Virus record (IMG/VR): IMGVR_UViG_2751185958_000012
Source of the DNA: a virus
Taxonomy: Duplodnaviria > Heunggongvirae > Uroviricota > Caudoviricetes
Direction: 5' to 3' (one strand)
Length of the DNA: 6,929 nucleotides
Shown here: positions 2,795-4,050 of the stretch, piece by piece
How the letters are laid out: each line of letters opens with the position of its first letter
Numbering within the stretch: the stretch's first letter is position 1
Notes under the pieces: generated by a model
What the model saw: only the letters and a program-made list of their open reading frames with translations
Told to the model about the DNA's origin: nothing
Databases searched by the model: none
Program-made: the position numbers and the translations under genes

Positions 2795-3446
2795 GTATTA
2801 TCCGGCGGTGTTTGAAGCAGAAGCTTTTAATTGCCCTCACTGCGGTGTATATGCCCGTCAGTTCTGGCGTAGTATGTATGGTAATTCGAATGTGCTTGCG
2901 GTCAAATCAACTGAGTTCCGAATGTCAACATGCTCTCATTGTGGTGAAGATGCCTATTGGTATCAGGGCAACATGTTGATCCCTGCGGCTGGCAATGTTG
3001 AACTCCCAAACCCAGACATGCCCGATGACTGCAAGTCAGACTATATGGAAGCTAGAAGCATCATTAATCTGTCTCCTAAAGGCGCAGCAGCACTCCTTCG
3101 TCTTTGCCTCCAAAAGCTAATGGTCCACTTAGGCGAACCGGGAAACAACATTAATGCTGACATTCGGTCACTCGTCCAGAAAGGACTACCTGTACGCATT
3201 CAGCAGGCAGCAGACATCTGTCGTATCGTTGGCAATCAGGCGGTCCATCCAGGAGAGATTAGCCTTGATGACGACCCACAGTTGGCACATGGTCTCTTTA
3301 AGCTGTTGAACATTATTGTCACTGAGCAGATTACCAGACCGAAAGAAATTGAGGCTATGTTCCAGAGTATGCCTGAAGGTCCACGCCAAGGTATTGAGAA
3401 TCAGGACAGACAGGCGAGGGAACAGCAGCAGGCTGCTAATGAATAA
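2787..3446 (+). CDS. Zinc-ribbon plus DUF4145-domain protein, 219 aa
   Basis: The start ATG overlaps the integrase stop by 8 nt (aATGGCTGA). The N-terminus has CPHCG...CSHCG (CxxC x29 CxxC). The C-terminal region [28 protein letters not shown]...[10 protein letters not shown]...[17 protein letters not shown] matches my recollection of the DUF4145 pattern (R..GN.a.H). The tail is Q/E/R-rich. Confidence 0.8.
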
Positions 3447-3465
3447 AACCCACACTATAGGGGGA
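3443..3465 (+). promoter_or_regulatory. Weaker T7-type phage RNAP promoter-like site (site A), predicted +1 G at 3460
   Basis: ATAAAACCCACACTATAGGGGGA aligned to T7 TAATACGACTCACTATAGGGAGA. The core CACTATAGGG (-7 to +3) is identical. An A at -8 is also seen in the K11-type promoter as I recall it. The upstream half is divergent. The site overlaps the stop codon of the DUF4145 gene. Confidence 0.4.
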
Positions 3466-3471
3466 AGGGGG

Positions 3472-3494
3472 ACTAAACTATCACTATAGGGAGA
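3472..3494 (+). promoter_or_regulatory. T7-type single-subunit phage RNAP promoter (site B), predicted +1 G at 3489
   Basis: ACTAAACTATCACTATAGGGAGA versus T7 consensus TAATACGACTCACTATAGGGAGA. All 14 positions from -8 to +6 are identical (TCACTATAGGGAGA). Positions -12 to -9 read ACTA, versus CGAC in T7 and ACCC in T3. An exact 22-nt copy recurs at 4027..4048. Confidence 0.7.
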
Positions 3495-4027
3495 GACCCT
3501 AAGTCCCCCCGGCTTAATACAGCCACCGACCCACACATTCATTAAATCTCAGGCTTCCGGTAGCGGACCGATTGGAAACCATCCGCAATAAGCCTAGTGT
3601 TAAATCACCTTGGCCTGAGACCATTCCCTTTAACGTAGCAATCTCTCTCCTTTGACAGGCGGAGAACATCAGACCTCAGCGGAACTTCCGTCTATGAGAC
3701 CATCGGTGTGCGAGATTGTGAAGAACCAAGACATCATTGCTGAGGTCTGCCATCCATTGTGGACAGGCGGAAACTCAAAGAGGTTAGACCAGTAGTGGTG
3801 TCTGAGGTCGGACTTTGAGTCCTGACCAGCAGGCTGGAGGAGACCATGAGTTTATCTTGTTATGGATTGTGTTATCACAATTCCAATAAGAAGAACTTTA
3901 AGTCCAGCCTCCACTCCCGCCAACCCGAAGTAAACTATGGTCGCTATGATGTGGTCTCCATGCTTCGGGTCTTACTGGAAGTACTGAACACTTTCGCGTC
4001 AAGTTCTCCGAAGTTCATTCCTGTTTG
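3495..4027 (+). other. Untranslated, repeat- and stem-rich region downstream of promoters A and B; a possible phage-RNAP-made structured RNA or cis-acting replication/packaging region
   Basis: The only ORF is a doubtful 60-aa frame (3846..4028). TGAGACCAT/GAGACCAT occurs three times (3617, 3696, 3840) and GACAGGCGGA twice (3654, 3762). There is an 11-bp inverted repeat CAGACCTCAGC/GCTGAGGTCTG (3670..3680 / 3739..3749). A nested hairpin pairs AGGCTT...GCGGA..TGG-aaa-CCA-TCCGC...AAGCCT (3551..3595). ACTCAAAG/CTTTGAGT pair at 3773..3780 / 3813..3820. An AT-rich patch lies at 3846..3900. Confidence 0.3.
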
Positions 4028-4050
4028 ACTAAACTATCACTATAGGGACC
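4028..4050 (+). promoter_or_regulatory. T7-type single-subunit phage RNAP promoter (site C), predicted +1 G at 4045
   Basis: ACTAAACTATCACTATAGGGACC is identical to site B from -18 to +4. The predicted transcript 5' end can fold: GGACCA/TGGTCC plus TCTCGC/GCGAGA within 4046..4100. This resembles the 5' stem-loops of T7 late transcripts. The site lies 320 nt upstream of the AAGGAG-ATG (4365) of the Rha-like gene. Confidence 0.7.

Follow-up and report, generated by a model that had tools for sequence, protein, structure and literature searches.

Few phages have been studied as closely or used as widely as T7 and its relatives, with phage therapy against K1 Escherichia coli among the applications. 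The mobile elements closest to the locus described here are the 'T7 islands' of enterobacteria, which Chen and Schneider in 2006 reportedly predicted from sequence and interpreted as satellites that a T7-like polymerase would activate. Such islands are said to span 4–13 kb between direct repeats of 17–24 bases, with an upstream integrase of the tyrosine-recombinase type and with two or three tandem T7-like promoters that lie within ~150–620 bases, lack a cognate polymerase gene, and drive two to five phage-related genes that share their orientation. Reportedly, no protein encoded by these islands resembles a phage structural protein. A second precedent is engineered: in work by Chung and Hinkle from 1990 (J Mol Biol 216:911), plasmids with a T7 origin and a T7 concatemer junction were reportedly replicated and packaged into transducing T7 particles, and these two cis elements, promoter/origin and junction, should therefore be sufficient in principle.

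We refer to the whole stretch of DNA analysed, 6,929 nucleotides in length, as the window (Table 1). In the window, tandem promoters whose +1 positions (3460, 3489, and 4045) span 586 nt occur without a polymerase gene and downstream of an integrase gene, and the region beyond promoter C carries, on the + strand, a Rha gene, ORFs of 63 and 163 aa, and a capsid-like gene. Intact relatives are bounded by a 17-bp repeat and measure 6,374 bp (L002; likewise L006 and L017–L019). The island shares with T7 islands the upstream integrase, tandem promoters, and co-oriented genes, and its intact relatives also share the size of a few kb and the terminal repeats; it differs in that its largest protein has a predicted HK97 capsid fold. 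The preliminary description of this DNA knew of no described enterobacterial island with such logic. Islands proposed to be triggered by a phage polymerase have in fact been described, under the name T7 islands (Chen & Schneider 2006, Nucleic Acids Res 34:1133-1147, PMC1380254). In the accessible part of the literature, neither the capsid gene nor the packaging-junction mimic, the structured RNA, or the link to RAZR detailed below appears to have been mentioned before.

Other satellites resemble the island in part. The cf-PICIs of Enterobacterales are likewise small integrated elements, and rather than merely resizing a helper capsid they supply a major capsid protein of HK97 fold themselves, but they add a portal, a protease, head-tail adaptors, and a small terminase, and use only the tails of temperate helpers. 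The present island has its own major capsid protein (by predicted fold), and none of its ORFs matched a portal, prohead protease, head-tail connector, or small terminase family in Pfam or PHROGs; it possesses only a scaffold-sized ORF and a capsid gene, wired to the helper polymerase via promoters, and would require a virulent T7-like helper. Vibrio PLEs (helper ICP1) and PICMIs are small islands for which infection by a lytic helper is the sole inducer; PICMIs are close to the present island in size and use concatemer packaging, and PLEs parasitise and block their helper. However, induction in these systems is protein-mediated rather than via a cis promoter read by the helper polymerase, and they have no gene homology to the island. 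In the P4/P2 pair, helper transcription machinery turns on the P4 late genes, and P4 both determines the size of the capsid and has a hotspot with defence cargo; P4 differs in relying on activator proteins that act on the host polymerase, in resizing the helper capsid via Sid, and in possessing its own replication genes. Compared with the engineered transducing plasmids, the island contains the same two cis elements, but is natural and additionally encodes an integrase and its own shell protein.

Table 1. Positions of island features and flanking elements in the window
Feature	Position	Strand	Sequence or basis
tRNA-Gly(CCC) glyU, integration target	979..1052	+	ARAGORN
attL core, last 17 nt of glyU	1036-1052		TCCCTTCGCCCGCTCCA
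Tyrosine integrase, 535 aa	1187..2794	+	tyrosine-recombinase NCBIfam matches of the window protein; PF00589 (3e-19) and phrog_1 (3e-44) matches of the L002 orthologue
RAZR / PD-T7-4, zinc finger + DUF4145 (HEPN-like) abortive-infection RNase	2787..3446	+	PADLOC
Promoter-like site A, degenerate copy, second flavour	3443..3465, +1 = 3460	+	ATAAAACCCACACTATAGGGGGA
Promoter B, Kayfunavirus class-III type	3472..3494, +1 = 3489	+	ACTAAACTATCACTATAGGGAGA (-17 to +6)
Expected promoter B transcript, predicted structured ncRNA	3489..4044	+	core ~3494-3972
Promoter C, Kayfunavirus type	4028..4050, +1 = 4045	+	ACTAAACTATCACTATAGGGACC
5' leader of C operon	4045..4364	+	last ~130 nt invariant across genera (alignment)
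Rha-family (antirepressor-like) gene	4365..5336	+	split by mini-IS 4395-4634
Small ORF, 63 aa	5338..5529	+	58-aa counterpart conserved in L002
163-aa ORF, candidate scaffolding protein	5650..6141	+	position, size, and charged helical middle region only
HK97-fold capsid-like gene (predicted), first 85 codons	6225..6479	+	cut by IS3-family element
IS3-family (IS911-like) element, foreign to island	6480..6929	-	NF033516 transposase, 4e-51

Promoters of the K1F-type in an island without a polymerase

The exact 22-mer GACTAAACTATCACTATAGGGA occurs twice on the + strand (3471–3492 and 4027–4048), as first noticed in the preliminary description. No further copy exists in the window with up to three mismatches allowed, and 0 of 200 dinucleotide shuffles yielded even one match; a chance repeat was thereby ruled out as the origin of the 22-mer. 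The shorter sequence CACTATAGGG occurs exactly at 3453–3462, 3482–3491, and 4038–4047. As had been claimed, site B agrees with the T7 consensus between −8 and +6 and carries the quartet ACTA at −12 to −9. All three sites share the + strand with every island ORF. A generic T7, T3, K11, or SP6 promoter type was considered, and was dropped in favour of the Kayfunavirus type after the annotated promoters of Kayfunavirus EcoDS1 had been extracted. This phage provides the match to the upstream half that the preliminary description had proposed to seek: each of its 11 annotated promoter sites contains ACTAAACTAT, and promoter B is identical at 23/23 positions to EcoDS1 phi10, annotated upstream of gene 10A. 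Promoter C matches the 23-nt Kayfunavirus (K1F-type) consensus, (A/C)CTAAACTATCACTATAGG(G/A)A…, from −17 to +5, fits the 11-site EcoDS1 consensus, and resembles the EcoDS1 phi6.5 and phi13 class (…CACTATAGGGAC). By sequence match, both B and C belong with the Kayfunavirus promoters. Nearly every match in a BLAST search of the promoter region against 50,697 phage records fell in a T7-like phage, with several matching sites in each genome. Taken at the level of sequence, these matches support the 22-mer as a genuine promoter for a K1F-type (T7-like) phage RNA polymerase.

Site A had been regarded as a third, partial copy of the 22-mer. Although CACTATAGGG is present there, the site represents a second promoter flavour rather than a partial copy of B, because its quartet at −12 to −9 is ACCC (T3-type) and position −8 is A. 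The slot is intact in sister islands (AATAAACCCTCACTATAGGGG in L010 and ATTATACCCTCACTATAGGGA in L007), where the A-type sites match ~11 promoters of Enterobacter phage vB_Ecl_MII_004. A comparison of homologous glyU islands, as proposed in the preliminary description, showed B in nearly all copies examined and C kept in sister islands; a few lineages have the other flavour only. More broadly, promoter flavour varies between island lineages while the architecture is constant. K1F-type and T3-like promoters occur in tandem in some islands, L020 and L022 have the T3-like flavour only, the sites of L026 are K11/SP6-like, an exact 20-mer repeat is peculiar to L028, and L030 shows yet another flavour; across lineages, the sites keep the same two positions, co-oriented and directly upstream of conserved elements.

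These patterns bear on the idea that the sites are passive polymerase decoys, or a relic of chance or recombination without meaningful transcription. The degenerate site A of the window lineage would be in keeping with a relic, but chance is excluded by the shuffles, and the fixed, co-oriented positions and lineage-tracking flavours are difficult to reconcile with either version. Two or three sites would also be too few to titrate a polymerase that serves more than ten promoters on each of hundreds of replicating genomes. We therefore attach almost no probability to this explanation.

Matches to host-type promoters are scarce on the island (1, compared to 5.0 ± 2.1 expected), with 0 on the coding strand. 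The late module would consequently be silent in an uninfected cell, in which the integrase and RAZR pair alone would be expressed, at a low level. The absence of an RNA polymerase gene from the window was upheld by the ORF list and profile searches and, together with the phage-identical promoters, supports the earlier proposal that the module may stay silent until a T7-like phage infects. Upon infection, the single-subunit RNA polymerase of the phage would recognise ACTAAACTATCACTATAGGGAGA and fire from B and C, and a T3-like polymerase would use site A where it is intact.

An anti-T7 abortive-infection gene beside the promoters

The gene between the integrase and site A, which begins within an 8-nt overlap with the end of the integrase gene, encodes RAZR. 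The PADLOC PD-T7-4 profile is matched at full length (E 2.7e-102, profile positions 1–209/211), and the C-terminal DUF4145 corresponds to PF13643. RAZR is an RNase switched on by T7/T3 portal rings (PMC13017515; PMC9519451) and is defined by an N-terminal Cys4 zinc ribbon and a C-terminal DUF4145 with catalytic R146 and H154 (PMC13017515). The window protein has these features, with C16, C19, C49, C52, R146, and H154 all present, and is thus a full-length member with intact catalytic and zinc-binding residues. Protection against T7 and T3 via portal-triggered RNA cleavage was established for the E. coli UMB1727 allele (PMC13017515); the window allele differs from the studied one at zinc-finger contact positions 29, 35, and 41. 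Published work treats RAZR as a stand-alone gene (PMC9519451; PMC13017515), whereas here it resides inside a T7-wired island, a setting for which we found no discussion in the RAZR literature.

RAZR bears on an alternative in which the island does not itself move but serves in defence or interference when an infection triggers it, its integrase attesting only to past mobility. The phage polymerase would turn on genes that harm the phage, namely a capsid-like decoy able to poison or divert the assembly of heads, a Rha/antirepressor-type regulator, and the RNA, with RAZR acting alongside and the junction mimic diverting the terminase. The earlier defence model was partly right because the gene adjacent to the promoters is a proven anti-T7 abortive-infection system, and its slot is variable between islands, like the defence hotspots of other mobile elements. 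In addition, known satellites interfere with their helpers too, so that the interference part of this alternative is likely to be true in any case.

A structured RNA downstream of promoter B

Promoter B had been described as firing into a non-coding region. This is correct insofar as no ORF is preserved, but the region is not idle DNA: it contains a conserved structured RNA core of ~480 nt. The fold has a minimum free energy of −181.7 kcal/mol (z = −4.3), with no Rfam match at E ≤ 1. In an alignment of 17 distinct copies, 97.6% of cells are paired, compared to 35–46% with slid partners, and compensatory changes occur in 18 pairs, compared to 8.8 ± 1.7 in shuffles (0/500), with the covariation coming mostly from one domain swap common to four sequences. 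Two other roles for positions 3489–4044 were rejected. A hidden protein gene is disfavoured by shortening of the 60-aa ORF at 3846–4028 in L002 and by 1-nt indels between copies. For an antisense to helper transcripts, both strands of the complete island were compared with EcoDS1 and MII_004 by short-word BLAST, and nothing above chance emerged in the RNA region. Promoter B would thus yield a structured RNA of ~550 nt, for which the likeliest role is that of a primer or origin element in replication, similar to the part that T7 promoters play at T7 origins.

A capsid-like gene in the operon of promoter C

Promoter C points into a Rha-like operon, as had been claimed. The intact Rha orthologue (L002) matches PF09669 and phrog_10324; in the window, the gene is interrupted by a 240-bp mini-IS (inverted repeats 4395–4413 and 4616–4634, with AAC on either flank), leaving an in-frame fusion ORF (4449–5336) that matches TIGR02681. 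Other island lineages possess unrelated genes in the Rha slot. The final ~130 nt of the leader, upstream of the ribosome-binding site, could form a long hairpin, with folding energies that are not significant (z = −0.9 and −1.5). The 63-aa ORF has no family match in Pfam or PHROGs. The 163-aa protein similarly belongs to no Pfam or PHROGs family and lacks BLASTP similarity to EcoDS1 gp9; its gene always lies directly upstream of the capsid-like gene, and distant islands have ORFs of 155–165 aa at this position.

The capsid-like protein comprises 329 aa when intact (orthologue at L002 19945–20934). By sequence it matched nothing in Pfam, PHROGs, a PDB profile search, or PADLOC, has no BLASTP similarity to T7-type gp10, and gave no tblastn match in 50,697 phage records. 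A shallow alignment produced an unusable structure model (pLDDT 36.6); a deeper alignment gave an AlphaFold2 model with pLDDT 83.1 and pTM 0.78. The best Foldseek matches to this model were all major capsid proteins or encapsulins with probability 1.0, with 208 matches at E ≤ 1e-3 in both PDB and BFVD; TM-scores were modest (0.3–0.47), and the matches were uniformly capsid proteins. The model thus predicts an HK97 capsid fold. The gene is followed by a terminator-like hairpin and U-run, comparable to Tphi after gene 10. The integrase, the 163-aa ORF, and the capsid gene are under purifying selection, with dN/dS of 0.08–0.19, 0.07–0.30, and 0.07–0.13, respectively. From promoter C, the phage polymerase would transcribe the Rha-family gene, the small ORF, the scaffold-sized ORF, and the capsid-like gene, ending at the terminator-like hairpin.

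Island ends and a packaging-junction mimic

Intact glyU islands are ~6.4 kb long with 17-bp repeats at both ends and contain six or seven ORFs only. The attR is the same 17-mer as attL, 6.37 kb downstream in L002, L006, L017, L018, and L019; in L002, the repeats occupy 14984–15000 and 21358–21374. The window shows attL only, and the right end lies beyond the IS3-family insertion, whose terminal inverted repeat TGAAGTGG… starts at 6480. The window copy is probably no longer mobilisable, given the mini-IS in its Rha gene and the IS3-family element that splits its capsid gene; RAZR, the promoters, and the RNA are undamaged. The islands adjoin ETT2, which was excluded as an island part because attR comes before it.

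Between the capsid gene and attR (L002 21102–21198) lies a sequence resembling the packaging junction of EcoDS1. This tail of the island aligns with the EcoDS1 concatemer junction at 39040–39135, across the terminal-repeat start at 39075, with a score of 47 compared to a shuffle mean of 28.5 (sd 2.6; 0/200), and the alignment is the best match anywhere in the EcoDS1 genome on either strand. The element is conserved in all copies, and the columns in common with the phage are those that do not vary. More extended DNA homology to phages was rejected: beyond the promoters and the junction, only a 61-bp match in the Rha gene was found, in two phage records.

The ends of intact copies also speak to the preliminary description's conservative alternative, that the island is a temperate T7-like prophage in decay, comprising the leftovers of a once complete Autographiviridae genome with an integrase. 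In its favour, the integrase, the T7-type promoters, the gene with a capsid fold, the hairpin resembling Tphi, and the sequence resembling a genome end all run in one direction, as they would in a T7-type genome. However, the island is not a degraded T7-like prophage in this sense, because intact copies stop at attR after 6.37 kb without a polymerase, replication, or tail module. All measure ~6.4 kb from one exact att repeat to the other and have one gene set in common across genera, and no remnant of an RNA polymerase, DNA polymerase, primase, portal, tail, or terminase gene was found between attL and attR in any of them; the single-subunit polymerase, replication, portal, tail, and terminase genes of a temperate T7-like prophage are all missing. 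Purifying selection on the island genes, the dissimilarity of the 329-aa and 163-aa proteins to gp10 and gp9, the failure of the capsid-like protein to match any phage record, and the confinement of phage-like DNA to the promoters, the junction, and the short Rha match also argue against decay. We consider a prophage origin of this kind very improbable.

A proposed satellite of T7-like phages

We favour the interpretation that the element parasitises T7-like phages as a satellite and is turned on by the polymerase of its helper, with a probability of roughly 0.6, and the window is best read as containing most of a T7 island, in a copy tuned to a K1F-type Kayfunavirus. Of the three models raised in the preliminary description, this one received the most support, via the capsid-like gene and the packaging-junction mimic. 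In line with a satellite, the island combines few structural or replication genes with signals matching a helper, namely the promoters and the junction mimic; Pfam and PHROGs searches revealed no portal, terminase, tail, or polymerase genes. Following induction, the junction mimic would lead the helper terminase to cleave the island DNA and package it, whether in capsids that the island shell protein has built or resized or as concatemers in helper capsids, and the integrase would insert the DNA at glyU of a new host. RAZR may then represent cargo in a variable slot that kills infections by phages with a portal it recognises.

The distribution of the islands bears on whether they are transferred. 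Such islands are carried by ~3% of complete E. coli genomes, some of them STEC-sized, and occur in at least four genera and at several integration sites, with intact att repeats. In 122 genomes, at least 80% of the search query is covered, and E. coli CFSAN064035 is an example of a strain whose island is uninterrupted. Near-identical modules in Escherichia, Buttiauxella, Leclercia, and Citrobacter imply ongoing horizontal transfer. This spread, together with an integrase maintained by purifying selection, is not expected of an untransferred defence element, which would also have no obvious need for a precise junction mimic beside attR, or for a scaffold and capsid pair followed by a terminator. 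In favour of the defence alternative, no excised or packaged form was found in metagenomes, viromes, or phage records. Island-sized metagenome contigs are integrated forms, of which L017 (6,455 bp) spans attL to attR, and two IMG/VR matches look like host or provirus contigs. Overall, we regard an element devoted purely to defence as unlikely, though well short of negligible.

Several observations count against the satellite interpretation. Excision timing is difficult to fit, because T7-like phages quickly degrade host DNA and the integrase lies upstream of the phage promoters. The island lacks portal, terminase, and tail genes, and its shell protein is unlike gp10 in sequence. T7-like portals trigger RAZR, which seemingly opposes the use of such phages as helpers unless specificities differ. 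Finally, searches of metagenomes and viromes yielded no circular, excised, or virion-derived copy, and no phage record contains the capsid-like gene.

A more general proposal, to which we give even odds, is that T7 islands constitute a widespread, hitherto unrecognised family of capsid-encoding satellites of virulent T7-like phages. Members would be induced by the phage polymerase via promoters whose specificity evolves along with the local phages, sometimes with two specificities in tandem; a structured RNA would serve replication or another cis function, a junction mimic would recruit the helper terminase, an HK97 shell and a small scaffold would build or resize heads, and RAZR would be cargo. 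We found no experimentally characterised satellite of T7-group phages in the literature, and the element would, if the proposal is true, be the first satellite system of the T7 group in E. coli. It would also parallel, in nature, the transducing plasmids engineered with a T7 origin and junction, and the proposal places RAZR, described in 2026 as a stand-alone system, in a genomic and ecological setting. If the islands work as proposed, infection is sensed without a sensor protein, through a promoter legible to the invader's polymerase alone, and the promoter flavours would form a record of the phages that a lineage has met. Such islands could alter how well K1F-type therapeutic phages work, and could carry DNA from one enterobacterial genus to another.

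Element layout and boundaries

In an uninterrupted island copy, that of E. coli CFSAN064035 (L002), the integrase and the DUF4145 gene lie upstream of the phage-type promoters, which are followed by a Rha-family gene (242 aa) and ORFs of 58, 163 and 329 aa. An exact repeat of the last 17 nt of glyU at L002 21358-21374 defines an element of 6,374 bp, and identical boundaries occur in one Buttiauxella genome and several metagenome contigs. Between the att sites there is no gene for an RNA polymerase, for replication or for a portal, tail or terminase. The preliminary description had named T7-like modules continuing rightward as the mark of a degraded prophage; none lie within these boundaries, and a decayed T7-like prophage, with which phage-type promoters and a capsid-like gene might be reconciled, is very improbable. 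In ETT2-positive E. coli, glyU lies on one side of the island and the ETT2 type III secretion cluster on the other (L002 15001-21374; ETT2 from 21608). Since attR comes before ETT2, the cluster is not part of the element, although both usually go by the name 'the glyU island'.

Features of the window (site A is located by its shared 10-mer, sites B and C by the 22-mer)
Feature	Position	Strand	Remark
End of IS1 copy	1-96
actS/ygeR	121-900
tRNA-Gly(CCC), glyU	979-1052
Tyrosine integrase	1187-2794	+
DUF4145 protein (RAZR)	2787-3446	+	start overlaps integrase stop codon
Region without convincing ORF	3447-4364		918 nt, contains sites A, B, C
Promoter site A	3453-3462	+	+1 at 3460
Promoter site B	3471-3492	+	+1 at 3489
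Predicted transcript	3489-4044
Promoter site C	4027-4048	+	+1 at 4045
14-mer, first copy	4103-4116		~60 nt downstream of promoter C
Invariant segment	4235-4364		~130 nt upstream of Rha start
Rha-family gene	4365-5336	+	broken by mini-IS
Mini-IS	4395-4634		terminal inverted repeats 4395-4413 and 4616-4634
orfA-Rha fusion ORF	4449-5336
17-nt tandem duplication	4745-4778		within Rha coding sequence
63-aa ORF	5338-5529	+
14-mer, second copy	5503-5516		end of 63-aa ORF
163-aa ORF	5650-6141	+
Capsid-like gene stump	6225-6479	+	85 codons
IS3-family (IS911-like) element	6480-6929	-

The window's own copy is damaged. Its 240-bp mini-IS, whose terminal inverted repeats are of IS3-family type and whose target duplication is the 3-bp AAC, keeps just the first ~60 codons of orfA; it interrupts the Rha gene after ten codons and creates an in-frame fusion ORF. 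The IS3-family element splits the capsid-like gene after codon 85. No damage affects RAZR, the RNA or any of the three promoter sites. The copy has probably lost its mobility but may still be transcriptionally responsive to infection. The window starts within the IS1 end and stops within the minus-strand IS911-like element; with the mini-IS, this makes three IS elements in 7 kb. The chromosomal flank shares 99.8% identity with E. coli, and among 5,426 complete E. coli genomes no copy of the island exceeds 92-95% identity to this one. Taken together, these points suggest that the source genome is Shigella-like and rich in IS elements. The RNA region was found in 163 of these 5,426 genomes, chromosomal every time and annotated in none.

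Several smaller features were also observed. The 14-mer GCTAGCAAGCTAGC occurs twice, the L002 version of the first copy being a perfect palindrome, GCTAGCTTGCTAGC, and may be a protein-binding site. The 17-nt sequence GCTCAAAACTGAGCAGT is exactly duplicated in tandem, its copies translated in two different frames, also in the intact L002 orthologue. Finally, the segment preceding the Rha start does not vary among Escherichia, Buttiauxella and Leclercia. It could fold into a long, imperfect hairpin directly before the ribosome-binding site (energy not significant, z = -1.5), with a possible role in processing or in control of translation.

Promoter sites and their phage counterparts

The 22-mer GACTAAACTATCACTATAGGGA is present in two exact copies (sites B and C), with no further window match at up to 3 mismatches and a match in 0/200 dinucleotide shuffles; CACTATAGGG is also exact at site A. 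With the first G of GGG taken as +1, the preliminary account of repeats, start sites and strand proved accurate, all three sites and all island ORFs lying on the + strand. A sensitive BLAST search of 3440-4060 against 50,697 phage records matched solely ~30-nt stretches, almost all in T7-like phages whose hosts are Escherichia, Salmonella, Citrobacter and relatives; each such genome was matched at four to six places, and "promoter" is annotated at the site in two records. The record of the K1F-type Kayfunavirus EcoDS1 annotates 11 phage-polymerase promoters with the common upstream half (A/C)CTAAACTAT; the one upstream of gene 10A, ACTAAACTATCACTATAGGGAGA, is identical to site B at 23/23 positions, and site C fits the phi6.5 and phi13 class. 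Phages with such promoters, whose absence would have told against the preliminary interpretation, therefore exist, and helper-type promoters on an element that has no polymerase gene support that interpretation. A crude scan for host-type promoters gave 1 match versus 5.0 ± 2.1 expected, with 0 on the coding strand.

Site A, previously taken for a partial copy of B, is of another type: it reads ATAAAACCCACACTATAGGGGGA and has the ACCC of T3 at -12 to -9, followed by A at -8. Intact sites at this position in two sister islands, AATAAACCCTCACTATAGGGG (L010) and ATTATACCCTCACTATAGGGA (L007), match ~11 promoters of Enterobacter phage vB_Ecl_MII_004 (MII_004), TTAAACCCTCACTATAGG and TTATACCCTCACTATAGG. 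The islands thus carry two promoter specificities in tandem, a T3-like/MII_004-type site beside Kayfunavirus-type B, and a Leclercia island has both flavours at each of two positions.

Promoter flavour differs between island lineages, the combination of K1F and T3-like types being common. Islands L020 (metagenome contig OGYT01000385.1) and L022 carry the T3-like (ACCCT) flavour only, the K1F type being absent, which indicates that specificity has switched between lineages. K11/SP6-like sites, with A at -8, are present in another island, L026. The distant islands L028 and L030, from other hosts, each repeat a T7-group-like motif of their own: L028 an exact 20-mer, TAAACCCCGACTATAGAGAG, upstream of the operon (5751-5770) and downstream of the capsid gene (9463-9482), and L030, which carries TTAAAAACCCTCACTATTGCGA, the motif TTAAAAACCCTCACTATTGCGAC at 6125-6153 and 7263-7291, which we take to resemble phage gh-1 promoters.

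A predicted structured RNA between promoters B and C

Across Escherichia, Buttiauxella and Leclercia, the ~500 nt from B to C are conserved beyond what is expected of spacer DNA. No ORF is preserved between the two sites, the window's 60-aa ORF being shortened in L002 and 1-nt indels occurring among copies. The predicted transcript has a fold z of -4.3 and matched no Rfam family. An invariant 31-mer recovered 14 further copies from metagenome and IMG/VR contigs, and RNAalifold was applied to an alignment of 17 distinct sequences. Paired cells amounted to 97.6% versus 35-46% with slid partners, and 18 pairs showed compensatory changes on both sides (shuffles 8.8 ± 1.7, 0/500 reaching 18; slid partners 1-9), the structure being taken from the same alignment and the counts dominated by a single domain swap. 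Specifically, a ~90-nt domain occurs in two forms, with differences at 10 pairs and complete pairing in each. The region shows no significant similarity or complementarity to the EcoDS1 and MII_004 genomes. T7 origins are T7 promoters and, by analogy, our preferred guess is that the RNA from promoter B would serve as primer or origin.

A packaging-junction mimic

Short-word matching between the island and the EcoDS1 and MII_004 genomes revealed, beyond the promoters, a 14-15-nt match in the island's non-coding tail; in both phages its counterpart adjoins the left side of the right terminal repeat. Local alignment extended over ~95 nt (L002 21102-21198 versus EcoDS1 39040-39135), crossing the terminal-repeat start at 39075, which is also the mature left genome end of EcoDS1. 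The phage junction reads …GAGACCACA|TCTCACAG…CCCCATAGGCC…CAGACCAAAGGCC and the island tail …GAGACCTCA|TCTAATAT…CCCCCATAGCC…CAGACCAAAAGGGCC. The alignment score of 47, compared to 28.5 ± 2.6 in 200 dinucleotide shuffles (maximum 39), is the best anywhere in the 39-kb EcoDS1 genome on both strands. Every island copy that extends far enough has the element. In L007 and L009, whose tails are the most diverged, most of the conserved columns are ones that the islands share with the phages, and the distant islands L026 and L028 have comparable sites containing CCCCATAG downstream of their capsid genes. The IS insertion places the element outside the window.

An island-specific capsid-like protein

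The 329-aa protein has no match in Pfam, PHROGs, PADLOC or PDB sequences. A word-indexed search found close relatives only (at least 70% identity), and an exhaustive HMMER search 62 relatives down to 24% identity. After an unsuccessful model from a shallow alignment, AlphaFold2 on a deeper, 31-sequence alignment gave pLDDT 83.1 and pTM 0.78. The top Foldseek matches of this model (PDB and BFVD) were major capsid proteins and encapsulins only, among them phi29, T5, HK97-family and phage-derived shells, at probability 1.0 and E ~1e-9 to 1e-10, with 208 matches at E<=1e-3 in each library. TM-scores of 0.3-0.47 are modest, as is common for the HK97 fold given its mobile N-arm and E-loop. The absence of BLASTP similarity to EcoDS1 gp10A and of tblastn matches in the 50,697 phage records (0) points to a shell protein private to the islands. 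The 163-aa ORF (155-165 aa in distant relatives) always directly precedes this gene and has a charged helical middle region; its position, though nothing else, marks it as a candidate scaffold. Immediately downstream of the capsid gene is a stable hairpin (-19.7 kcal/mol, z = -4.4) followed by UUUAUUUU, a position equivalent to that of Tphi after gene 10 in EcoDS1.

RAZR and the defence reading

The DUF4145 protein is a full-length match to PADLOC PD-T7-4 (E = 2.7e-102), a system from a functional selection of E. coli DNA protecting against T7 (PMC9519451). [quoted passage not shown] The window's protein retains C16, C19, C49, C52, R146 and H154 and has S29, N35 and S41 at trigger-contact positions, versus R29, R35 and T41 in the studied allele, whose residues L002 shares. 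In other lineages the slot holds a different gene or is empty, and this variability makes it resemble the cargo/defence hotspot of other satellites. A non-transferred interference or defence island is the main rival reading, unlikely yet the strongest of the alternatives: RAZR is in keeping with it, as is our finding no excised or virion-borne copy among metagenome and IMG/VR contigs and phage records, and the capsid gene and junction mimic speak for transfer. The two readings overlap, because satellites usually interfere with their helpers.

Discussion

Integrase and integration site differ by lineage (L009 lies in ynfE/ynfF with a 35% identical integrase), as does the gene in the Rha slot, while the promoters, the scaffold-sized ORF, the capsid gene and the junction mimic are kept in all lineages and the RNA in close ones. 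The capsid gene has a dN/dS of 0.07-0.13, the 163-aa ORF one of 0.07-0.30 and the integrase one of 0.08-0.19. That the promoter sites are passive decoys or a relic is hardly credible. We favour, at a probability of roughly 0.6, a satellite of T7-like phages that is induced directly by the helper's polymerase. Points that sit less easily with this reading are the location of the integrase upstream of the phage-type promoters, the breakdown of host DNA by T7-like phages and the presence of RAZR, which portals of such phages can trigger. That polymerase would drive promoter-dependent transcription and probably replication, with the junction mimic as second cis element; Chung & Hinkle reportedly found in 1990 that two such cis elements sufficed for T7 packaging of plasmids into transducing particles. 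Heads that are small or altered would fit with the private capsid protein; alternatively, concatemers might be packaged in helper heads.

Contrary to what the preliminary description had supposed, the island type is not new. In 2006, Chen & Schneider are said to have described 12 islands, 4-13 kb in size, from nine enteropathogens, all with two or three tandem T7-like promoters, no polymerase gene, an upstream tyrosine integrase and 17-24-bp terminal repeats, and to have suggested that they are satellite phages switched on by a T7-like polymerase; in its intact copies, the present element has these features. We found no experimental follow-up in the literature, and recent satellite literature is silent on these T7 islands. 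No earlier mention was found of the gene with capsid fold, the junction mimic, the structured RNA or the link to RAZR; together with promoter flavours that are dual and vary by lineage, they now make the hypothesis concrete. The 2006 satellite hypothesis has apparently never been tested, and the added anatomy makes it directly testable.
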